In this document: piece by piece, positions 1,810 through 63,289 of the stretch | How the letters are laid out: every line of letters begins with the position of its first letter | Numbering within the stretch: position 1 is the first letter of the stretch | NCBI GenBank assembly: GCA_035547695.1 | Contig: DASZUK010000004.1 | Coordinates: forward strand, 1,299-65,298 | Reading direction: 5' to 3' | Length of the DNA: 64,000 nucleotides | DNA from: Acidimicrobiales bacterium | GTDB lineage: Bacteria; Actinomycetota; Acidimicrobiia; Acidimicrobiales; RAAP-2 | Notes under the pieces: model-generated | Database searches by the model: none | The model's input: only the letters and a program-made list of their open reading frames with translations | Told to the model about the DNA's origin: nothing | Translations under genes and position numbers: made by a program

Positions 1810-2809
1810 GCACTTCGGTCCCCAGCCGCCGCAGGAACCCGATCTGGTCCGGCACCAACTGGGTGAACAGCAGGTTGGTGGCCCCGTACCCCGCGATCTC
1901 CCGGAGCCGGTCCACGCAGGCCTCCGGCGGTCCGGTCACCGCGAACCGCTGGGCCAGCCAGTCCCGGAGCCCGCAGCGGTCCACCAGGTCGGCGTTGTGG
2001 GCGCTGCCGTCGGCCACCGCATGCTCCCCGTGGGCGTACCCGGCCATCAGTTCCCGCAGCCCGTCCGCCTGGTCCTCCGGCACCCGCTTGCCGGCCAGGG
2101 TGAACCGGAACACGTGGTCGGCGCTGGCCGCCAGCAGCCACCGCAGCGACGCCACCCCGTCCTCCACGGTGTCGGCGAACTGGAAGTTGACCATCCACCA
2201 GATCTCCACCGCGTCCGGCGACCGGCCGGCGTCGACGGCCCCCTGCCGCACCGTGGCGATGGTGTCCTGCACCACCTGCCGTGTCAGCCCGTTGGACACG
2301 ATCACCCCGTCGGCCATCGCCCCGGCCAGCCCCAGCTTCTTCGGCCCCTCCGCGGCCAGGAACACCGGCACCGGACGGACCGGGTCGGTGGCCCACCGCA
2401 GCCGCAGCCGTTCCCCGTGGTACGTGGCCGGCCGCCCCGCGGTCAGCTCCCGGACCGCGGTGGCGTAGGCCACCACCTCGTCCACCGGCGCCGGCCGCCG
2501 TCCCAGGTTCAGCACCGCGCTGTCCCCGCCGCCGATCCCCACCACCATCCGGCCGCCCGACAGCTCCTGCAGGCTGGTCATCGCGGCCGCCGTCACCGCC
2601 GGGTGCCGGGTCACCGGGTTGGTCACCATCGGGCCCAGCCGCAGCGTGGTCGACGCCTCGGCCGCCACCGCCAGCGCCACGTACGGGTCGTGCCACAGGC
2701 ACGGCGAGTCACCGTGCCCCAGCAGCTCCAGCCCCGCCTCCTCGCAGGCCCGCACCGTGCCGGCGTAGGCCCCCATGTCCCTGGCGTAGTAGTCGGTGCC
2801 GAACCGCAT
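1793..2809 (-). CDS. LLM-class (luciferase-like) flavin/F420-dependent oxidoreductase
   Basis: 338-aa ORF with an MRFG start, GRMVVGIGGG and LAAEGPKKLGLAG, typical of the LLM TIM-barrel family. Confidence 0.88.
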   Translation of the reverse strand: MRFGTDYYARDMGAYAGTVRACEEAGLELLGHGDSPCLWHDPYVALAVAAEASTTLRLGPMVTNPVTRHPAVTAAAMTSLQELSGGRMVVGIGGGDSAVLNLGRRPAPVDEVVAYATAVRELTAGRPATYHGERLRLRWATDPVRPVPVFLAAEGPKKLGLAGAMADGVIVSNGLTRQVVQDTIATVRQGAVDAGRSPDAVEIWWMVNFQFADTVEDGVASLRWLLAASADHVFRFTLAGKRVPEDQADGLRELMAGYAHGEHAVADGSAHNADLVDRCGLRDWLAQRFAVTGPPEACVDRLREIAGYGATNLLFTQLVPDQIGFLRRLGTEVLPKVR

Positions 2810-2877
2810 CGGTGCCGCCTGCGACGGTCCCGTGGCCCACCCCTCCCTTCCTGTCCCTCTCCCTTCCTTCCTATGCT

Positions 2878-2891
2878 AAGCAAGCATTTGG
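2878..2891. promoter_or_regulatory. AAGCAAGCATTTGG motif, shared with 7209-7222
   Basis: See 7209-7222. This copy lies between the LLM (minus) and SMP-30 (plus) genes. Confidence 0.4.
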
Positions 2892-2938
2892 TTGGTCGAC
2901 AACCGGGTCGGCCGCCGGGGACTGGCCGGAGGGTCGCC

Positions 2939-3847
2939 GTGCAGACCGAACCGTTCGTGGACGGCCTCGCCTACCCGGAGTGCCCCCGCTGGCACCGCGG
3001 CGCGGTCTGGCTGTCCGACCAGCACGCCGGCGTCGTCGTCAAGGTCGACGTCCCCGGTGCCGGCCGCCCCGCCCCCGTGGCCGAGGAGGTGGCCGCCCCG
3101 CCCACCGAGCCGGCCGGCCTGGGTTGGGCCCCCGACGGCACCCTGCTGGTGGTGTCCATGCACGACCGCCGCCTGCTGGCCTTCGATCCCGACGGCGCCG
3201 GTGCCCCCGGGACCGGCGGCGGTCGGTTCCGGACGGTGGCCGACCTGGCCCCGTTCCACCCCGGCCTCAGCAACGAACTGTTGGTCGACCCGGCCGGCCG
3301 GGCCTACGTCGGCAACATCGGCTTCGACTACTACGGCGGCCAGGACCCGCGGCCGACGGTGGTGGTGCTGGTCCACCCCGACGGCGCCGTCCGGGTGGCC
3401 GCCGACGACCTGCTGGTCCCCAACGGCATGGTGCTGACCCCCGACGGGGCCACCCTGGTGGTGGCCGAGTCGTTCGCCCACCGGTTGACCGCCTTCACCG
3501 TCGCCGCCGACGGCTCCCTGGGCCACCGCCGGGTGTTCGCCGACCTCGACGACGACATCCCCGACGGCATCTGCCTCGACGCCGACGGCGCCGTCTGGTA
3601 CGCCGCCATCGGCCGCCACCAGGTCGTCCGGGTGCTGCCCGGTGGTGGGCCGGCCGGGAAGGGGACGGTGGACGAGCGGGTGTCCACCGGCGACCGGGAG
3701 GCCGTGGCCTGCATGCTCGGCGGCCCCGACCGCCGCCGCCTGTTCGTCTGCACCACCCTCCATCTCGATCCCGAGCACTCCGTGCCGGCCCGCAGCGGCC
3801 GGCTGGAGGTGGTGGACGTCGCGGTGCCCGGCGCCGGCCTGCCCTGA
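2939..3847 (+). CDS. SMP-30/gluconolactonase/LRE-family beta-propeller protein
   Basis: This is the in-frame tail of a spurious 924-aa track ORF. A GGAGGG SD (2926-2931) precedes GTG 2939; ATG 2873 is an alternative start. Motifs: PECPRWH, LLVDPAGRAYVGN, LVPNGMVLTPDG, PDGICLDADGAVW. Confidence 0.82.
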   Translation: MQTEPFVDGLAYPECPRWHRGAVWLSDQHAGVVVKVDVPGAGRPAPVAEEVAAPPTEPAGLGWAPDGTLLVVSMHDRRLLAFDPDGAGAPGTGGGRFRTVADLAPFHPGLSNELLVDPAGRAYVGNIGFDYYGGQDPRPTVVVLVHPDGAVRVAADDLLVPNGMVLTPDGATLVVAESFAHRLTAFTVAADGSLGHRRVFADLDDDIPDGICLDADGAVWYAAIGRHQVVRVLPGGGPAGKGTVDERVSTGDREAVACMLGGPDRRRLFVCTTLHLDPEHSVPARSGRLEVVDVAVPGAGLP

Positions 3848-3848
3848 T

Positions 3849-4391
3849 CTACGCCGGCGGCTGCGCCGCCCAGAACCGCTGCCAACTGTCCCACCGGTAC
3901 GGCAGGGTGCCGGTCCCGGTGTCGTGGGCCGGCCAGTCCGCCGCCGCCATCCCCACCGGGCGCCGGCCGTGGGCGGCGCCGTAGAACAGCTCGTGCCGGC
4001 GCTGCGCCGCGAAGTACCACCGGCCGTCCCGCCGGACGTACCGGTCGCCGTAGCAGATGGCCTGGTGGACCCAGGTGTCCGGGCCGGTCTGCACCTCGCC
4101 GTGGCAGTACACCGCCCCGGTGGCCTGGTCGTCGTCGGTGAACTCGATGACGTGGTTCCCGACGTGCAGGATGGTGGTCCGCACCCGCCGCAGCGACGGC
4201 TCCATCAGCTCCCGGAGGGCGTCGCGGCCCCGGCGGCCGCCGGGCAGCTCGACGTCGTCGGCGTACAGCCCCATCAGCCCGTCCATGTCCCGGCGGTCCA
4301 GGGTGGCCGAGTACCGCCAGGCCAGTTGCCGGATCTGCCCGGCCGACTCCAGCCGGTCGATCCGGGCGGCCAGCGTGGCCGGATCAGCCAT
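3849..4391 (-). CDS. SnoaL-like / NTF2-fold protein (SnoaL_4 type)
   Basis: 180-aa ORF with IRQLAWRYSATLDRRDMDGLMGLYADD and HVGNHVIEF. The W-rich tail TLPYRWDSWQRFWA is shared with the upstream paralogue. Confidence 0.8.
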   Translation of the reverse strand: MADPATLAARIDRLESAGQIRQLAWRYSATLDRRDMDGLMGLYADDVELPGGRRGRDALRELMEPSLRRVRTTILHVGNHVIEFTDDDQATGAVYCHGEVQTGPDTWVHQAICYGDRYVRRDGRWYFAAQRRHELFYGAAHGRRPVGMAAADWPAHDTGTGTLPYRWDSWQRFWAAQPPA

Positions 4392-57237: not shown

Positions 57238-57864
57238 ATGTCCGGCAAGAAGGCGCTGTTGGCCGTCGGCGCGGCGGGGGTCGTCGGCGTCGTGGTGTCC
57301 CTGGGACTGGCCCTCGGCGCCGGTTCGACCCCGAGCGGCCGGTACACCGGCCCCACCGGGGCCAATCCCCACGGCGTCGGCTACACCTCCGGGAAGATCG
57401 TCTCCACGGTGGCCGGCAACACATCCACCGCCCAGGGGGGTGGCCAGGCTGGTGGAGGTGTCGGCGCAGCCGGGGCGGTGACATCCGGAGCGTCCGGACC
57501 CACAGCGGCCGCCGCCGGGGGAGCGGGCGTCGGCACGTCCGGCGCGGCGACACCGGGTGCCGGCGGCGGCGTTTCCGCTTCCGCCTCTGCCGCCGCCGGC
57601 CGGGGCGCGGCCTCCCTCGGTGGCGGTGCCTCGGCGTCGGGCTTCGGAGGCACAGCGACAGCGGCAGCGACCACGACAGCGGCGTCGGCATCGGCATCGG
57701 CGTCGGCCGGTGCAGCCGGCGGAGGGACCACAGCGGCGGCTGCGGCCGCCGGCGGGGCGGGGGCGACAGGAGCCGGCCTCGGCAGCAGCGGCGGCGCCGG
57801 CGGATTGGGCAGTGCCGGCGGATTGGGCAGCGCCGGCGCCACAGGGTACGGCGGCGCCGGGTAG
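57238..57864 (+). CDS. membrane-anchored Gly/Ala/Ser/Thr-rich low-complexity protein
   Basis: ATG 57238 follows GGGGGG. The N-terminal anchor is MSGKKALLAVGAAGVVGVVVSLGLALGAG. It is followed by about 170 aa of GAST-rich sequence ending in GGLGSAGGLGSAG repeats. Synonymous-type variation falls on third positions in this frame. Confidence 0.5.
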   Translation: MSGKKALLAVGAAGVVGVVVSLGLALGAGSTPSGRYTGPTGANPHGVGYTSGKIVSTVAGNTSTAQGGGQAGGGVGAAGAVTSGASGPTAAAAGGAGVGTSGAATPGAGGGVSASASAAAGRGAASLGGGASASGFGGTATAAATTTAASASASASAGAAGGGTTAAAAAAGGAGATGAGLGSSGGAGGLGSAGGLGSAGATGYGGAG

Positions 57865-57882
57865 GGCCCTGCCGGGCGCGGG

Positions 57883-59067
57883 TCAGCCGAGCCGGAGGGT
57901 CTCCAGCGGTTCGAGCCGGGCCGCCTTGATGGAGGGGTAGAGGCCGGCCACCACCGACACCAGCAACGCCAGGCCCATCCAGACGGGGATCTCGGCGTAG
58001 GCGATCACCACGGTCCAGCCGGCCAGGGCGGACACGCCGTAGACCACCAGGATGCCGAGCACCGCGCCGACGGCGCCGCCGAGGATGCCGATGAACAGGG
58101 ACTCCAGGAGGAACTGTGAGCCGACGGTGGAGCGGCTGTGCCCGACGGCGCGCCGGATGCCGATCTCGGAGGACCGCTGGATCACGGAGATGGACATGAC
58201 GTTGGCGATGCCGATGCCGCCGACGGTCAGCGCCAGCAGGCCGGCCAGCAGGGCGACCTCCTGCAGGGTCTTGTTGGCCTGGGCCTGGGCGGCCAGGGCG
58301 TCGCTGGGGACCTGGGTGGACACCTGCACTGTGCCGCCCAGGTTCACCGCGGTGGGGACGGCCTTGGCGGTGGCCTGGGTGGTGCCTGTGCGGGCGCGGA
58401 TGTAGAGCTGGTTCGGCCGGCCGGTGGTGCCGAGCAGGTGCTTGGCGGCCCACTCGGTGACGAAGGCGGCGTTGTCCAGTGTGGGGTCGAGCGGCACGCT
58501 GTCCAGCACGCCGACGACGCCGAAGTCCTTGCCGTTGAGCTGGATCGTCCGGGTCTCGCCGGGGAGGTAGCCGTACTGCTTGGCGATGCCCTCCCCGAGC
58601 ACCACCGAGCGGAGGTGCAGGGTTGTGTCGGCGCGGTTCAGCCACCGGCCGTCGAGCACCGGCACCCCGAGGACGGCCGGCAGGTTGTCGCCGGCGGCCC
58701 GCACCGGCACCGGGAAGGCCTGGTAGTAGCTGCTCGCTCCCTGGACCGGCAGGGCGATCACCCCGGACAGGTTCCCGGTGGCCGCCGCCGAGGTCACGGT
58801 GGAGATGTTCTCGACCCGCTCCACCGCATTGGCCGGCAGGGTGGGGTTCTGCGACCCGAAGCTGCTGCCGGCCTGGGCGATGATCAGGTTGGTGCCCAGT
58901 TGGGCCAGTTGGGCCTGCAGCGCCCCCTTCGCGCTCTCGGTCAGGCCGACCGCGCTGACCATGGCCGCCACCCCGATGACCGGCCCGAGCATGATCATCA
59001 TGGTCCGCACCTTCCGGGCCCGCAGGCCGGCCCAGGCGACGGTCGCCAGGTCCCGGGACTTGCTCAT
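57883..59067 (-). CDS. MacB/FtsX-type ABC permease with extracytoplasmic domain
   Basis: 394-aa ORF. TM1 is followed by a MacB_PCD-like loop of about 220 aa and a C-terminal FtsX 3-TM bundle (RSSEIGIRRAVGHSR). The start overlaps the ATPase gene stop as ATGA. Confidence 0.9.
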   Translation of the reverse strand: MSKSRDLATVAWAGLRARKVRTMMIMLGPVIGVAAMVSAVGLTESAKGALQAQLAQLGTNLIIAQAGSSFGSQNPTLPANAVERVENISTVTSAAATGNLSGVIALPVQGASSYYQAFPVPVRAAGDNLPAVLGVPVLDGRWLNRADTTLHLRSVVLGEGIAKQYGYLPGETRTIQLNGKDFGVVGVLDSVPLDPTLDNAAFVTEWAAKHLLGTTGRPNQLYIRARTGTTQATAKAVPTAVNLGGTVQVSTQVPSDALAAQAQANKTLQEVALLAGLLALTVGGIGIANVMSISVIQRSSEIGIRRAVGHSRSTVGSQFLLESLFIGILGGAVGAVLGILVVYGVSALAGWTVVIAYAEIPVWMGLALLVSVVAGLYPSIKAARLEPLETLRLG

Positions 59068-59831
59068 CGCCGGTCGCCTTTCCCGGCGGCGCCGGCCCGG
59101 CGCTCGTCGGCGACGATCCTCCCGTCGCGCATCGACACCTTCCGCAGCGCGGTGTCGGCGACGGTGAGGTCGTGGGTCACCATCACCACCGCCCGTTCCG
59201 GGGACTGCAGGCTCTCGAAGATCTCCAGGACGTGCGCGGCGTTGGCCGAGTCGAGGGCCCCGGTCGGCTCGTCGGCCAGGATCATCAGCGGCTCCGTCAC
59301 GATGGCCCTGGCCAGGGCCACCCGTTGCTGCTCGCCGCCCGACATCTGCACCGGCCGGTGGTCGGCCCGCTTCCCCAGGCCCAGGCGGTCCAGGGCGTCG
59401 TAGGCCCGGTCCCGGCGGTCCTTCGGCCGGATGTCCCGGTAGAGCAGGGCGGTCTCCACGTTGCCGAGCGCCGTCAGGTGGGGGATGAGGTGGAACTGCT
59501 GGAACACGAACCCGATGGCGTCCCCGCGGACCCGGGACCGGGTGGCGTCGTCCAGCCCGCTCACGTCCTGGCCGGCCACCCGGACGGTGCCCGACGTCGG
59601 GTGGTCGAGGATCCCGAGCAGGCCCAGCATGGTGGACTTTCCCGATCCCGACGGGCCCACGATGGACATGAGCTCGCCCGGGAAGATCTGCAGGGACACC
59701 TCCCGGAGGGCGTACACCTCCACCTCCTCCCCGTACACCCGGGACACCGTGTCGAGCTCCAGGAGCGGCCGGGCCGTCTCGGCGGCCAGGGTCATGTGGA
59801 CTGGCGGGGTCATGTGGACTGGCCGGGTCAT
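59064..59831 (-). CDS. MacB/LolD-type ABC ATP-binding protein
   Basis: Motifs: GPSGSGKST, MSGGEQQRVALARA and ILADEPTGALD. ATG 59831 overlaps the adaptor stop as ATGA. Two further in-frame ATGs lie 18 and 36 nt downstream, within a tandem repeat. Confidence 0.9.
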   Translation of the reverse strand: MTRPVHMTPPVHMTLAAETARPLLELDTVSRVYGEEVEVYALREVSLQIFPGELMSIVGPSGSGKSTMLGLLGILDHPTSGTVRVAGQDVSGLDDATRSRVRGDAIGFVFQQFHLIPHLTALGNVETALLYRDIRPKDRRDRAYDALDRLGLGKRADHRPVQMSGGEQQRVALARAIVTEPLMILADEPTGALDSANAAHVLEIFESLQSPERAVVMVTHDLTVADTALRKVSMRDGRIVADERRAGAAGKGDRR

Positions 59832-59842
59832 TTGGACTGGTT
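59789..59842. repeat. 18-bp tandem triplication at the adaptor-stop / ATPase-start junction
   Basis: gggtcatgtggactggc occurs at 59789 and 59807, and gggtcatttggactggt at 59825. The encoded sequence is M-TRPVH-M-TPPVH-M-T. Confidence 0.9.
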
Positions 59843-62365
59843 GGTCTGCAGGACCACGGTCTGGCCGGGGCGGAGCGCGCCGCCCTTGATCTGGATGTAG
59901 GAGCCCTCGGTCAGGCCGGTCCTGACCGGCACCGTCGTCACCCGGCCGCCCTTGGACAGGTCGATGACGCGCACCACGTCGTGGCCGGCCCCGTTCTGCA
60001 GCACGGCGGCGATCGGGACCGTCAGGGCGTCGTCGACCTGCTGGTCCACCACGTTGATGGTCACCTGCGATCCGTCGGCACCGCTGAAGTCGGAGACCTC
60101 GATGCGGCCCTCGTAGACCTGCGACGACTGCCCCCCCGAGCCCGTCGTCACTGTGGGGGTGCGGTTCAGCTCGGTGATGGTGCCGGTCCCCTGTGTGCCC
60201 TGCCCGGAGATCTGCACCGTGCAGTGCTGGCCGACCTTCAACTTGGTCCGGTCGGCCGCCGTGGCCTGCAGCGTGACGCTCAGGTTGGGCTCGGTGAGCG
60301 ACAGGATGGCGGTGCCGGCCGCCACCGGCTGGCCGGCCTTCACGTAGACCTGGCCGATGCGGATGGGCCAGTGGCCGACGATCATGTCGGTGGGCTCGAA
60401 CTGCACGTCGGTCTGCAGGGTCTGGAGGGCCACGGTGACCTGGGTCTGCCCGGCCCTCAGCAGCGCGGTGCCCGACAGCGGGACGTAGCTCTGCCCGGGC
60501 TCGGCGGTGCCCTGGGCGGTGAAGTTCACCGACGTGTCCTTCACCGGGGGCTGGCTCGCCGTGATCGTGAACGACGCCGACCCGCCCTGGGCGACGCTGG
60601 AGGTGCTCGCCGTCAGGGTCAGCGTCGGGACCACTGTCGACGTGATGGTCGCCGTCGCGCTGTTCGGTGTCCCCACCACGTAACTGCCCGAAGGCGCCAG
60701 CGCCACCGTGAGGACCCGGTCGGCCTCCACTGTGTTGCTGGTCACCGTCGGCACTGTCACCTTGAGCGCCGTCTGGCCGGCCGGGACGACGATGTTGCCC
60801 GGGGGCACCGTGTAGTCGGTTCCCCGGACCGCGGTGCCCGAGTACGAGAGGTGGACGGTGAGGGGCGTGCTGGTGGCCTTGCTGAGCCCCACCGCCAGCG
60901 TGAACGGCTGCCCCTTCTTCAGGTAGGTGGTCGGCGACTGCAGGGTGACGACCGGCTCCGCTCCGGACTCGCTGATGGTGACGACGGCCGACCCGGGGGT
61001 TGTGACGGTGTAGTTGCCCGCCGACGGGGTGACGGACACCGACAGGTACTTGTCCGGCTCGATCACTGTGGTGGCCACGGTCTGGACCGTCACCGTGGCC
61101 GACGTGCTCCCCGCCGGCAGCGTCACCACCGGGTTGACCGGGTCGTAGTCGGTCCCGGCGGTGGCGCTGCCGGTCACCGCCAATCCGACCTGCAGGTCCT
61201 GCAGCGGTGGCTGGCTCGCCGTCACCGTCAACGTGGCCGACGCCCCCGGGGTGACCGTCGTGGCCCCGGTGATGGTCAGGGCCGGCACGTTGGGGTTCTT
61301 GATCGTGGTCTCCGCGACGCCGGGGTTCCCCACGGTGTACCCGGTGCCGGCGGCGACGGAGAGCTCGATGGTGCGGTCCGGCGCCACCGCCGTGGTCACC
61401 CGGGTCTGCACCGTCACCGAGACCTGGGTCGCCCCGGCAGGCAGGGTGACCGACGTGGGGGGCGACACCACGTCCTGCGCCCCGGCCGTGCCCCCCGGGG
61501 TCAGCGACACGGTGAGCGGGTTTGTCACCGCCGCCGACGACGACACCACGAACGTCGCCGGCTGCCCCTGGGCCACCTGGTCGTCGACGGACTGGATGGT
61601 GAGCACCGGTGTCCCTGTGCTGCTGCTGGCGGTGCTGTCGGCGTACGACGCCAACGTGGCGTCGGCCCCGGCGGCCCCGGCGGCCGCCCCGGCCGCGGTC
61701 CCGACACCGGCGCCGGCGCCGGCCCCGGCGGTGCGGTCCCGGCCGGTGGCCAGTGCCGCGGTCTGCGCGGGAGGTGGCCCGATGATCAGCCCGGCGGCGT
61801 CCTGGCTGCCGACCTTGTAGCCGGTGCCCTGCTGGAGGGCCACGGTCACCGACTGCGGGGTGGCCGGGGTGGTGTTGGGGTAGTCGTGCTGGGCCTGCCA
61901 CTGGGCCAGGGCGAACTGGGTCTGCTGGTTGAAGTAGTTGTTCATCGGCCCCGGGTAGTCCCCGGCCGCGGCAAGGATCTGCTTCAACTGCAGCACGTCG
62001 GCCCCCTGGTCGCCCAGGGTGAGGGCCCGGAAGAACCGCACGGTGCCGTCCTCGGCGACGGCCGTCCGGCCGTTGAGGGCGAACATGGCGTCGCCGGCCT
62101 GGGTGGTCGACCCGTTGGTGGCGGTGACGGTGCTCACCAGTCCCTGGTTGGCCGCGTCGACGTTGCGGATCTGCTTCCGGGCCAGGGTGCCACTGAGGGT
62201 CACCGTGTCCTGGAGGGTCCTCGTCTGCACTTGACCGAACACGACGGTCTCGTTCTGCGTGCTCGTCCCCCCGGCGGTGCCGACGATGGCGTAGGCGATG
62301 CCCCCGGCTGCCAGGGCGACGACGCCCACCGCCGCCGCCAGCACCTTCTTGTTCCGCAGGTTCAC
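59828..62365 (-). CDS. membrane-fusion (HlyD/MacA-like) adaptor with PG-binding domain and four Calx-beta-like repeats
   Basis: GTG 62365 follows GGGGGG. The order is: an N-terminal TM (VLAAAVGVVALAAGGIAYAIV); PG_binding_1-like LGDQGADVLQLKQILAAAGDYPGPMNNYFNQQTQFALAQWQ; four repeats of about 108 aa (GSATAGTDYDPV...TLPAGSTSATVTVQTV...EPDKYLSVSV); and the MFP barrel-sandwich, beta-barrel and membrane-proximal end (IRIGQVYVKAGQPVAAGTAILSL ... VPVRTGLTEGSYIQIKGGALRPGQTVV). Confidence 0.85.
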   Translation of the reverse strand: MNLRNKKVLAAAVGVVALAAGGIAYAIVGTAGGTSTQNETVVFGQVQTRTLQDTVTLSGTLARKQIRNVDAANQGLVSTVTATNGSTTQAGDAMFALNGRTAVAEDGTVRFFRALTLGDQGADVLQLKQILAAAGDYPGPMNNYFNQQTQFALAQWQAQHDYPNTTPATPQSVTVALQQGTGYKVGSQDAAGLIIGPPPAQTAALATGRDRTAGAGAGAGVGTAAGAAAGAAGADATLASYADSTASSSTGTPVLTIQSVDDQVAQGQPATFVVSSSAAVTNPLTVSLTPGGTAGAQDVVSPPTSVTLPAGATQVSVTVQTRVTTAVAPDRTIELSVAAGTGYTVGNPGVAETTIKNPNVPALTITGATTVTPGASATLTVTASQPPLQDLQVGLAVTGSATAGTDYDPVNPVVTLPAGSTSATVTVQTVATTVIEPDKYLSVSVTPSAGNYTVTTPGSAVVTISESGAEPVVTLQSPTTYLKKGQPFTLAVGLSKATSTPLTVHLSYSGTAVRGTDYTVPPGNIVVPAGQTALKVTVPTVTSNTVEADRVLTVALAPSGSYVVGTPNSATATITSTVVPTLTLTASTSSVAQGGSASFTITASQPPVKDTSVNFTAQGTAEPGQSYVPLSGTALLRAGQTQVTVALQTLQTDVQFEPTDMIVGHWPIRIGQVYVKAGQPVAAGTAILSLTEPNLSVTLQATAADRTKLKVGQHCTVQISGQGTQGTGTITELNRTPTVTTGSGGQSSQVYEGRIEVSDFSGADGSQVTINVVDQQVDDALTVPIAAVLQNGAGHDVVRVIDLSKGGRVTTVPVRTGLTEGSYIQIKGGALRPGQTVVLQTNQSK

Positions 62366-62376
62366 CGGTTCCCCCC

Positions 62377-62415
62377 GTGTCGTGTTGCCGTGTCGTGTTG
62401 CCGTGTCGTGTGTGC
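62377..62415. repeat. 13-bp tandem repeat x3 immediately upstream of the adaptor start
   Basis: Units: gtgtcgtgttgcc (62377-62389), gtgtcgtgttgcc (62390-62402) and gtgtcgtgtgtgc (62403-62415). Confidence 0.9.
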
Positions 62416-62420
62416 TCGGT

Positions 62421-63095
62421 CTACGTGGCGCCGACCTTGGCCGCACAGGCCTGCAGGTCGGGGCTGGAGAGCAGGGTCTGGCCGGGCGGCGGCGTGAGCT
62501 GTGGCCCTTCACCTGTGCCGCCGAACGAGAACAGCAGGCCCTTGGCGTTCGGGGTGGGCTCCGGGATCTTCCAGCCGCGGCCGATCATGCACTTGCGCCA
62601 CTGGATATAGGCCTTGTTCTGCTTCTTGACCTGGGCCGGCGTCAGGTTGTCCTGCGAGCTCTGGGCGGCCTTGAGGGCGTTGAGGATGTTGCTCTTGCTG
62701 GCGCAGGTGGCCAGCGCCTTGACGTAGTTGGGGTCGTTCACCGGTGTGCCGGCGCCCTTGGCGTTGGGGATGCCGATGAAGGTCACCCCCATGCCGGCCA
62801 GGCAGCCCTGGAAGGAGGCCAGGGCGGTGAACAGGGCCGTCGTCGGGCTCTGCTTGGCCAGCGGGATGGTGCTGCCCACCGTCGCCGCGCCGCCGTGGCC
62901 GCTGCCGGCCGTCGGGAGGTCCGCCTGGGGGATCTGGCCCGATTCGACGAACGTGGTGCCCGCGGACGGGTCACCGCCTCCGCAACCGGCTGCCAGGCCG
63001 CCGGCGGCCAGGACCGCCATGACGGCCAGCACGACGCCACCCCGACGAACCAGTGCGCCGCGCGCCGGATTTTCGTCAGTCCCCCCCGGACGCAC
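62421..63095 (-). CDS. orphan lipoprotein, first gene of the MacB-type operon
   Basis: From GTG 63095 it reads VRPGGTDENPARGALVRRGGVVLAVMAVLAAGGLAAGC (lipobox LAAGC). The mature part has 4 further Cys and is K/N/Q-richer than its neighbours. No family was recognised. Confidence 0.62.
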   Translation of the reverse strand: MRPGGTDENPARGALVRRGGVVLAVMAVLAAGGLAAGCGGGDPSAGTTFVESGQIPQADLPTAGSGHGGAATVGSTIPLAKQSPTTALFTALASFQGCLAGMGVTFIGIPNAKGAGTPVNDPNYVKALATCASKSNILNALKAAQSSQDNLTPAQVKKQNKAYIQWRKCMIGRGWKIPEPTPNAKGLLFSFGGTGEGPQLTPPPGQTLLSSPDLQACAAKVGAT

Positions 63096-63133
63096 GTCGA
63101 AGGACACTACAAGACCACAGGTCAACGGAACAG

Positions 63134-63211
63134 CCCACCGCCGTCCCGGCGCCATCCCACCGCCGTCCCGGCACGGCGCCGGCACCGTCCGGGCACGGCG
63201 CCGGCACCGTC
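63134..63211. repeat. two adjacent 22-bp-period tandem duplications in the lipoprotein-operon / ileS divergent region
   Basis: cccaccgccgtcccggc occurs at 63134 and 63156. ggcacggcgccggcaccgtc occurs at 63170 and 63192. Confidence 0.88.
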
Positions 63212-63289
63212 GGACGGACCGACCGGTGCGACCCTCTAGTCTTTCCGGAGCCGTTCCTGCCCACCCCGACGCCCTGACCAGGAGATCCC

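Follow-up and report, generated by a model that had tools for sequence, protein, structure and literature searches.

Gene organization of the operon

The window analyzed here is a 64,000-nucleotide stretch (∼72% GC) of contig DASZUK010000004.1, from an uncultured soil actinobacterium of the Acidimicrobiales, in which four minus-strand genes follow one another in the order lipoprotein, adaptor, ABC ATPase, and MacB-type permease. The open reading frames (ORFs) encode a 224-aa lipoprotein (gene 1; 62421..63095), an 845-aa membrane-fusion (periplasmic adaptor) protein (MFP) with a GTG start (gene 2; 59828..62365), a 255-aa ATPase of the MacB/LolD/FtsE clade (gene 3; 59064..59831), and a 394-aa permease (gene 4; 57883..59067). 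These coordinates, together with the ATGA overlaps that join the adaptor stop to the ATPase start (59828-59831) and the ATPase stop to the permease start (59064-59067), had been given in a preliminary description of the locus, and direct reading of the sequence verified both. The GC content at third codon positions (GC3) was 0.96-0.97 in the adaptor, ATPase, and permease genes, a strong coding signature, and the overlaps couple the separate ATPase and MacB-fold permease translationally to the membrane-anchored adaptor.

The ATPase matched the Pfam family ABC_tran (1e-33, 117 bits), and its best NCBIfam alignments were to the nucleotide-binding domain region of MacB (9e-71) and to LolD (1e-63), all under the equivalog cut-offs. 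The permease matched MacB_PCD (3e-24, 87 bits vs. a gathering score of 27) and FtsX (3e-17, 63 bits vs. a gathering score of 25.5) in Pfam, and aligned over its full length with the PDB sequences of MacB (5nik_J, 9e-31) and Spr0695 (5xu1_M, 9e-18). A hydropathy scan placed hydrophobic segments of the permease at ∼20-43, 267-296, and 318-382, read here as four putative transmembrane helices with an extracytoplasmic core domain (∼44-266) between the first two. The permease and ATPase together are a MacB-type (type VII) ABC transporter. At 59784-59840, an 18-nt tandem repeat (3.1 copies) lies across the adaptor stop and the ATPase start and is translated into a repeated PVHMT at the ATPase N-terminus, so the true ATPase start may differ among relatives.

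The lipoprotein encoded first in the operon begins with a signal peptide (62985-63095) and a lipobox, LAAG-C38 (Cys38 at nt 62982-62984), followed by a disordered tether (residues 39-77; 62865-62981) and a predicted helical domain (residues 78-224; 62424-62864). In its AlphaFold2 (AF2) model, residues 1-77 had predicted local distance difference test scores (pLDDT) <50, and the 10-residue blocks from residue 81 onward had mean values of 77-94, except for the block 191-200 at 63. An alignment of 47 homologs revealed four invariant cysteines besides that of the lipobox (C98, C131, C169, and C217) and the conserved motifs GQIP, TIPLAK, GRGW-IP-P, and GLLFSF. The term “Cys-rich” used in the preliminary description refers to these five residues, and its term “orphan” has to be given up, since 490 homologs exist, the named ones in Acidimicrobiales metagenome-assembled genomes (MAGs). 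A codon usage different from that of the neighboring genes had also been proposed; the difference is marginal, as GC3 was 0.91 overall and 0.92-0.98 in 300-nt windows inside the mature part, which leaves the remark with little substance. No Pfam or NCBIfam family was found for the protein, and Foldseek returned no PDB fold match to its AF2 model at E<1. An internal duplication suspected by eye was unsupported (hhalign probability 2%). The signal peptide has an arginine pair (LVRRGG) ahead of its hydrophobic stretch, and RR occurs in many homologs; export by the Tat pathway is possible judging from this motif.

Architecture of the adaptor

The adaptor has an identical entry at NCBI, annotated “Calx-beta domain-containing protein,” and >300 close homologs, the named ones again in Acidimicrobiales MAGs. 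Its N-terminal transmembrane anchor (residues 6-33; 62267..62350), located by hydropathy scan, precedes a segment of beta strands and the N-terminal half of a lipoyl domain (residues 41-105; 62051..62245), where strands appear in the AF2 model, Pfam gave weak Biotin_lipoyl and HlyD_D23 signals at 65-99, and relatives gave clear Biotin_lipoyl_2 matches. The other half of the lipoyl domain lies at the far end of the protein with the beta-barrel and membrane-proximal domains of YknX_C / RND-MFP_C type (residues 661-845; 59831..60385), where RND stands for resistance-nodulation-division; these were assigned from TIGR01730, PDB profile, and Foldseek matches. TIGR01730 (RND_mfp) aligned with residues 669-841 (2.8e-13, 49.5 bits, under its cut-off of 94.9), a PDB profile matched the MexC-like 9j3d, and homologs of the adaptor carry PF25967 and PF25989. 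Foldseek superposed the adaptor core on MacA (5nik_D and 9qgy_G) with an rmsd of 3.2-3.4 Å over ∼178 columns at 23-24% identity, and further matches were obtained to BesA, AcrA, TMexC, CusB, and ZneB. The 845-aa protein is a genuine MFP, as the preliminary description had supposed, and it retains the three domains (lipoyl, beta-barrel, and membrane-proximal) with which the adaptor of MacAB-TolC surrounds MacB. The Pfam families anticipated for the operon (PG_binding_1, Calx-beta, MacB_PCD, FtsX, and ABC_tran) were likewise all found, the Biotin_lipoyl and HlyD_D23 signals being weak.

Between the lipoyl halves, the adaptor carries a PG_binding_1 domain (residues 115-165; 61871..62023), modeled as two helices with pLDDT ∼83. 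The Pfam match was 6.8e-5 (23.4 bits vs. a gathering score of 23), the region also matched the PDB sequence of the SleB peptidoglycan-binding domain (6tci), and the most conserved motif of the adaptor family, FALAQWQA, falls inside it. The Pfam order in the window adaptor is accordingly Biotin_lipoyl (67-96), PG_binding_1 (120-165), and Biotin_lipoyl_2 (670-690). In the AF2 model, which was built on 46 homologs and had a mean pLDDT of 74 and domain-level values of ∼80-90, helices were restricted to residues 15-18, 122-133 and 147-159 (the peptidoglycan-binding domain), and 703-706. Since no helix of ≥4 residues was present between residues 160 and 702, the adaptor is without an alpha-hairpin, and the hairpin position is taken by PG_binding_1, an Ala/Gly-rich linker, and Calx-beta repeats. 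The alpha-hairpin, which docks to TolC in diderms, is thus replaced by a peptidoglycan-binding domain and a Calx-beta chain whose last repeat is split.

The Calx-beta family (PF03160) matched the adaptor at 7e-16 (58.7 bits vs. a gathering score of 27). Pfam, repeat alignment, and Foldseek delimited three complete repeats, R1 (254-358), R2 (359-468), and R3 (469-577), together spanning 60635..61606; their pairwise z-scores against shuffles were 12.8-18.4 (6.5-18.4 when all four repeats were compared), their pLDDT was 84-91 for the most part, falling to 72-78 in a few 10-residue blocks, and Foldseek matched the repeats to NCX1 and to CALX CBD12. A 109-position profile built from complete repeats located the fourth in two pieces. 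Strands A-E (residues 578-660; 60386..60634) correspond to profile positions 2-84 and terminate at an invariant P-T-D-M, after which the lipoyl C-half follows directly. Strands F-G (residues 171-198; 61772..61855) correspond to positions 81-106, form a beta-hairpin in the AF2 model (pLDDT 83-85), and lie ∼400 residues upstream of strands A-E, immediately after PG_binding_1. Strands F-G are joined to R1 by a disordered linker (residues 199-253; 61607..61771; A20 G10 T8 of 55 residues, pLDDT <50) that varies across the adaptor family. The order is therefore lipoyl-N, peptidoglycan-binding domain, strands F-G, Ala/Gly linker, complete repeats, strands A-E, and lipoyl-C. The peptidoglycan-binding module and the immunoglobulin-like (Ig-like) repeats of the preliminary description were both recovered, with its four plain repeats revised to three complete repeats and one split.

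Independently of repeat number, the split layout was present in 46 of 46 family members and in 18 of 18 distant relatives; the latter (726-1705 aa) have 2-11 complete repeats, with the cut in the last one invariably at approximately position 77-89 of the profile. Given this constancy, the insertion is probably a closed loop; on the simplest view, the fourth repeat would be reconstituted from its two pieces as one domain, closing the array. A plain return tether for a straight rod was also considered as the role of the linker and was rejected because the 1705-aa relative, with 11 complete repeats, has only ∼25 linker residues by eye; from the repeat topology, a split-domain clasp appears to be the better account. 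At the equivalent of the acidic Ca2+-binding motif of the NCX CBD domains, just one Glu or Asp pair is kept in the window repeats (VAPDR, IEPDK, VEADR, and FEPTD; by eye), and a marine-like relative (P0415) is far more acidic there.

Conservation of the operon and its wider family

Relatives of the adaptor were sought in 185,579 species-representative genomes with patterns for two conserved peptides of the family alignment, one of them FALAQWQA. In total, 106 stretches encoded a relative and 80 loci were kept, all from MAGs of Acidimicrobiia or other Actinomycetota bar one bin labeled Burkholderiales; the isolate names (palsa, bog, SPRUCE) often point to peatland samples. A same-strand lipoprotein gene lay immediately upstream of the adaptor gene in 78 of the 80 loci (tblastn), the other two being cut by contig ends, and the ATPase and permease followed the adaptor wherever the contig continued, down to 40% adaptor identity. 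The same four-gene order was seen in the other 13 contexts examined, except in short contigs ending inside the operon. The proposal that the four genes are a conserved unit, with the lipoprotein and adaptor syntenic with the ABC genes, is thereby borne out, and the lipid-anchored, helical, four-Cys protein encoded first in the operon is a constant companion of the adaptor. The Burkholderiales-labeled contig (L046; CAZLEC010000319.1, bin “uncultured Burkholderiales,” 5.6 kb) encodes an adaptor 55% identical to that of the window in the same synteny and is most likely a mis-binned Acidimicrobiia contig.

Most Acidimicrobiia genomes with the module have one copy of it. Two Acidimicrobiia MAGs have two copies on different contigs, MFD05512.bin.2.108 (L037 and L083) and SPRUCE 437 (L014 and L064), and two MAGs assembled as single chromosomes (L027 and L039) gave one match each. 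The flanks of the operon vary, with no flanking family in more than ∼15 of the 80 loci; the commonest neighbor is a downstream membrane protein (15 of 80), and the 159-aa gene downstream in locus L003 (14158-14637) has a YfhO match. In another locus (L001, 327-5843), genes for an Lnt-like acyltransferase and an LPG-synthase/MprF-like protein adjoin the operon; envelope-lipid or glycopolymer genes are thus neighbors in some loci, an arrangement that is not conserved generally. No recurrent regulator, small ORF, or small secreted peptide gene was found beside the operon in the 80 Acidimicrobiia loci. Acidimicrobiia are regarded as monoderm, and no OEP/TolC family match was found among the genes called or annotated in the 15 loci with gene tables; whole genomes were not searched.

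The window operon relates to a wider family, which was reached by an exhaustive representative search with adaptor residues 40-200. This query recruited 1724 proteins matching that segment at E≤1e-3, and in the top matches it lay at the same position (residues ∼35-200) in all size classes; a search with the Calx region deleted from the adaptor returned fragments of the same family only. Compact adaptors of ∼350 aa contain Biotin_lipoyl, PG_binding_1, and HlyD_3 without Calx repeats, and extended adaptors measure ∼730, 815-845, 900-1050, 1126, or 1705 aa. A junction motif, D-[MV]-[IV]-V-G-x-W-P-A-R-V-G, is common to compact and long forms; because it is shared, and because PG_binding_1 in the compact forms sits exactly between the lipoyl halves, the Calx array is an elaboration at the hairpin position. 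Compact modules occur in Streptomyces, Actinomyces oris, and Dehalococcoidia and share with the window system the gene order, the upstream four-Cys lipobox protein, the PG_binding_1 site, and the junction motif; they differ in their ∼350-390-aa adaptors without Calx repeats, in their short lipoprotein tethers, and in the two-component system that adjoins three of the five compact loci examined (in A. oris, Streptomyces sp. HUAS 31, and one metagenomic locus), whereas none adjoins the Acidimicrobiia operons. A lipoprotein homolog was encoded directly upstream of the adaptor in every complete relative examined. The upstream lipobox four-Cys proteins matched the lipoprotein profile, with E-values of 2e-49 to 2e-7 in loci L085-L089 and an hhalign probability of 89%, the Streptomyces and Actinomyces proteins matching weakly.

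One compact locus, in the Dehalococcoidia MAG contig JBBDMZ010000057.1 (L087), has four lipoprotein paralogs interleaved with two secreted peptides upstream of the adaptor, ABC, and permease genes. The peptides (2789-3058 and 4019-4297) are paralogous, ∼90 aa long, and aromatic- and Cys-rich; they matched no Pfam family and no known bacteriocin family, and they might be bacteriocin-like cargo. The lipoprotein tether, measured as the distance between the lipobox Cys and the first Cys of the domain, was 27-52 residues with adaptors of 346-378 aa, 82 with one of 733 aa, 60 in the window (845 aa), 80 at 914 aa, 121 at 1047 aa, and 151 at 1705 aa, giving a rank correlation with adaptor size of ∼0.83 (n = 8 loci; hand calculation without phylogenetic correction). 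PG_binding_1-containing MFPs with a four-Cys lipoprotein can be grouped provisionally as one kind of module in Actinomycetota and Chloroflexota. The window system shows both features of this grouping, namely PG_binding_1 between lipoyl half-motifs and a four-Cys lipobox protein directly upstream on the same strand; it is the Calx-extended branch of widespread modules composed of a peptidoglycan-binding adaptor, a lipoprotein, an ABC ATPase, and a MacB-type permease.

The preliminary description took the composite architecture for a candidate undescribed machine. No paper describing the adaptor architecture or the lipoprotein was found, nor any characterization of the compact modules, and nothing relevant was found on peptidoglycan-binding or Calx-containing MFPs or on MacB-like systems in Actinobacteria. 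The system is, however, not isolated, being a branch of a widespread family that public genomes annotate generically: family adaptors are labeled “peptidoglycan-binding protein” or “AcrA (MFP),” and the modules of A. oris (strain WVU627, PGE45_RS11550-11565) and Streptomyces sp. HUAS 31 read [quoted passage not shown]

Other features of the window locus lie between and around the four genes. Between the lipoprotein and adaptor genes, a 55-nt spacer (62366..62420) has a G-rich stretch ahead of the adaptor GTG start and is mostly occupied by a perfect 13-nt tandem repeat (62375-62411; 2.8 copies, plus-strand unit CCGTGTCGTGTTG; Tandem Repeats Finder); a terminator scan found no terminator-like site in it. 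Upstream, a divergent intergenic region (63096..63289), presumed to hold the operon promoter, separates the lipoprotein gene from that of a class I tRNA synthetase, which is read on the plus strand from 63290 (tRNA-synt_1, 1e-49), and this divergent neighbor makes the operon a self-contained unit. Within 63141-63211 of this region is a 22-nt tandem repeat (at 63163-63211; 2.2 copies, 96% matches) that could be a candidate operator or leader element. Scans of the region for promoters, terminators, and Rfam families gave no hits, including no match to the sigma-70 consensus in 63096..63289 and no Rfam match, T-box included, in the divergent region. At the other end, a Gly/Ala-rich ORF on the plus strand (57238..57864) converges on the operon. 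The ORF exists as previously described, with one predicted N-terminal transmembrane segment, but its GC3 is 0.81 vs. the 0.96 typical here and it is absent from 79 of the 80 related loci, its N-terminal 60 residues alone recurring in the closest relative (L005). It was rejected as a fifth component on both grounds and is doubtful as a gene.

Comparison with known systems and functional interpretation

Among characterized systems, MacAB-TolC of E. coli (5nik, 9qgy) shares with the window system a MacB-fold permease, an ATPase of the same clade, a MacA-like adaptor core, and an N-terminal transmembrane anchor. It differs in that the window ATPase and permease are encoded by separate genes, the adaptor has PG_binding_1 and a Calx-beta loop in place of the alpha-hairpin, no outer-membrane factor was present in any locus examined, and an obligate operon-encoded lipoprotein without a fold match is added; Foldseek gave no match of this lipoprotein to YbjP, though the PDB library includes YbjP-pump complexes. 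Without the hairpin, the system is not to be filed as of tripartite MacAB-TolC type. By analogy, it would work most like YknXYZ or Spr0693-0695: YknWXYZ of Bacillus and Spr0693-0694-0695 of S. pneumoniae (5xu1) likewise have a monoderm host, a transmembrane-anchored MFP, and separate ATPase and permease genes, and homologs of the window adaptor carry a YknX_C-type C-terminal domain. Gram-positive adaptors pair with MacB homologs, SpMacA stimulates the ATPase, YknX binds peptidoglycan, and the channel formed by Spr0693 is MacA-like (PMC5985334). Unlike YknX, which has a prominent alpha-hairpin (PMC4446572), and unlike Spr0693-0695, the window system has a hairpin-less adaptor with a dedicated PG_binding_1 domain, a split, nested Calx array, and a lipoprotein partner. 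The additional membrane protein YknW of YknWXYZ (PMC5985334) is a precedent for a fourth, accessory component, which in the window is a disulfide-type lipoprotein rather than a membrane protein. BesA of Borrelia (4kku, 4kkt), which ranked with the best structural matches of the adaptor core (TM-score on the target, 0.46-0.48), is also hairpin-less, but nothing is inserted at its hairpin position, and it partners an RND pump and the outer-membrane factor BesC in a diderm (PMC4446572).

With moderate confidence, we interpret the operon as encoding a four-component, wall-anchored envelope extrusion machine of MacB type (type VII ABC) in a monoderm actinobacterium. In such a machine, ATP binding and hydrolysis would power mechanotransmission in the outer domain of the permease, and a substrate, originating in either the outer leaflet or the inner-wall zone, would be expelled through the adaptor ring into the wall. 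PG_binding_1 would fasten the ring to peptidoglycan; the Calx chain, probably closed into a loop by the split repeat and seated on the lipoyl ring, may extend further into the wall. The lipoprotein would be a stoichiometric fourth subunit for substrate capture, presentation, or regulation, held at a height set by its tether. The preliminary description had pictured the adaptor as a possible conduit or strut through the wall and the lipoprotein as a candidate substrate, chaperone, or sensor. The most likely role, by analogy with YknWXYZ, Spr0693-0695, and MacAB, would be to remove or export peptides or compounds that act on the membrane or wall, because two-component systems adjoin the compact relatives; such neighbors fit an envelope-stress or peptide-resistance module. 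Several observations weigh against this interpretation. The PG_binding_1 score is barely over the gathering threshold, the inter-domain geometry of the AF2 adaptor model is unreliable (predicted TM-score 0.35), and the tether trend comes from 8 loci without phylogenetic correction. No conserved substrate, regulator, or peptide gene lies beside the Acidimicrobiia operon, the role in resistance or export is borrowed from distant relatives and characterized homologs, and near single-copy conservation could instead mean a housekeeping envelope role.

The interleaved peptides of the Dehalococcoidia locus and the two-component systems flanking compact modules would also suit a dedicated export-and-immunity module for a bacteriocin or secreted peptide, in which the lipoprotein binds a wall- or membrane-active peptide at the surface and the pump expels it. 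LanI lipoproteins, which work with LanFEG transporters, offer an analogy. We regard such a module as unlikely here, as the 80 Acidimicrobiia loci have no conserved gene for a small secreted peptide near the operon and the window has none at all, the Dehalococcoidia peptides match no known bacteriocin family, and no similarity of the lipoprotein to a solved structure was detected. The absence of a cargo gene would instead be expected of a mechanotransducer without a transported substrate, whose ATP-driven movements, passed on by the adaptor and lipoprotein, control wall remodeling or architecture, as FtsEX does. Neither FtsEX nor LolCDE is known to use an MFP. A transducer of this kind is consistent with the MacB/FtsX fold of the permease, with the peptidoglycan-binding domain being the most conserved part of the adaptor, and with a conserved, usually single-copy system in the carrier Acidimicrobiia genomes; both FtsEX and LolCDE have the type VII ABC fold and act by mechanotransmission on extracytoplasmic partners (PMC5985334), and FtsEX is reported to regulate RipC, PcsB, and EnvC (PMC10694151, PMC10214136). 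The permease scores far under the model cut-offs for either system, however: it matches MacB over its full length, whereas FtsX_actino (29.1 bits, cut-off 250) and FtsX_Gpos (29.6 bits, cut-off 225) aligned weakly and with its C-terminal region only. A Pfam scan, moreover, found no hydrolase or coiled-coil activator domain in the operon, and FtsEX is not known to have an MFP partner, which further lowers this alternative to a small probability.

The other MacB-type precedent, LolCDE (PMC5985334), raises the prospect of lipoprotein or lipid extraction or trafficking, with the operon lipoprotein as cargo or acceptor and lipidated molecules moving outward along the Calx arm. That the lipoprotein gene comes first, that its tether scales with adaptor length, and that Lnt-like and LPG-synthase-like genes adjoin one operon (L001) would fit, but the permease scored 36.6 bits against the LolC/E model TIGR02212 (cut-off 362), the L001 neighborhood is not conserved, the lipoprotein is helical with no solved-fold match and no LolA/LolB-like fold was detected, and a monoderm offers no outer membrane as a destination. 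As LolCDE, too, is not known to work with an MFP, we consider this quite improbable. Tandem Calx-beta arrays are typical of bacterial adhesins, and repeat-bearing relatives gave weaker Pfam matches over the repeats to the LapA adhesin-repeat and DUF4843/DUF5006 models, with the number of complete repeats ranging from 2 to 11 among lineages; the adaptor might therefore serve chiefly for adhesion at the surface or for display from the wall, its fusion to an MFP scaffold being incidental and the ABC genes an unrelated efflux pair. The ATGA overlaps and the translational coupling they imply, the invariant synteny, and the nesting of the repeats within the MFP fold at the hairpin position, rather than as an appendage, make this very improbable.

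What is known in the extrusion machine favored above is the MacB pump family; what is new is the split Calx-beta repeat within the adaptor, the exchange of the hairpin for a wall module, and the four-Cys lipoprotein partner. It is unusual for repeats to have expanded inside a domain, as they have in the split, nested Calx-beta domain. More speculatively, and with a low likelihood, the closed Calx-beta loop and the length-matched lipoprotein tether may form a wall-spanning device calibrated to wall depth, in which six loops on a MacB-driven ring would engage or encircle peptidoglycan strands and mechanotransmission would act on the wall or gate a path; if true, the system would be the Gram-positive equivalent of a trans-envelope conduit, working without an outer membrane, and not simple efflux.

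Reviews of MacB pumps and of periplasmic adaptors ask what adaptors do in bacteria without an outer membrane (PMC5985334, PMC4446572). The family described here is a natural experiment on that question, in which the docking hairpin is swapped for a wall-binding domain; one branch adds an Ig-like repeat loop of variable length, and the lipoprotein partner is constant, its tether rising with adaptor size. Because Streptomyces and A. oris, which have the compact form, are culturable and genetically tractable, what the wall anchor and the lipoprotein do is directly testable there.

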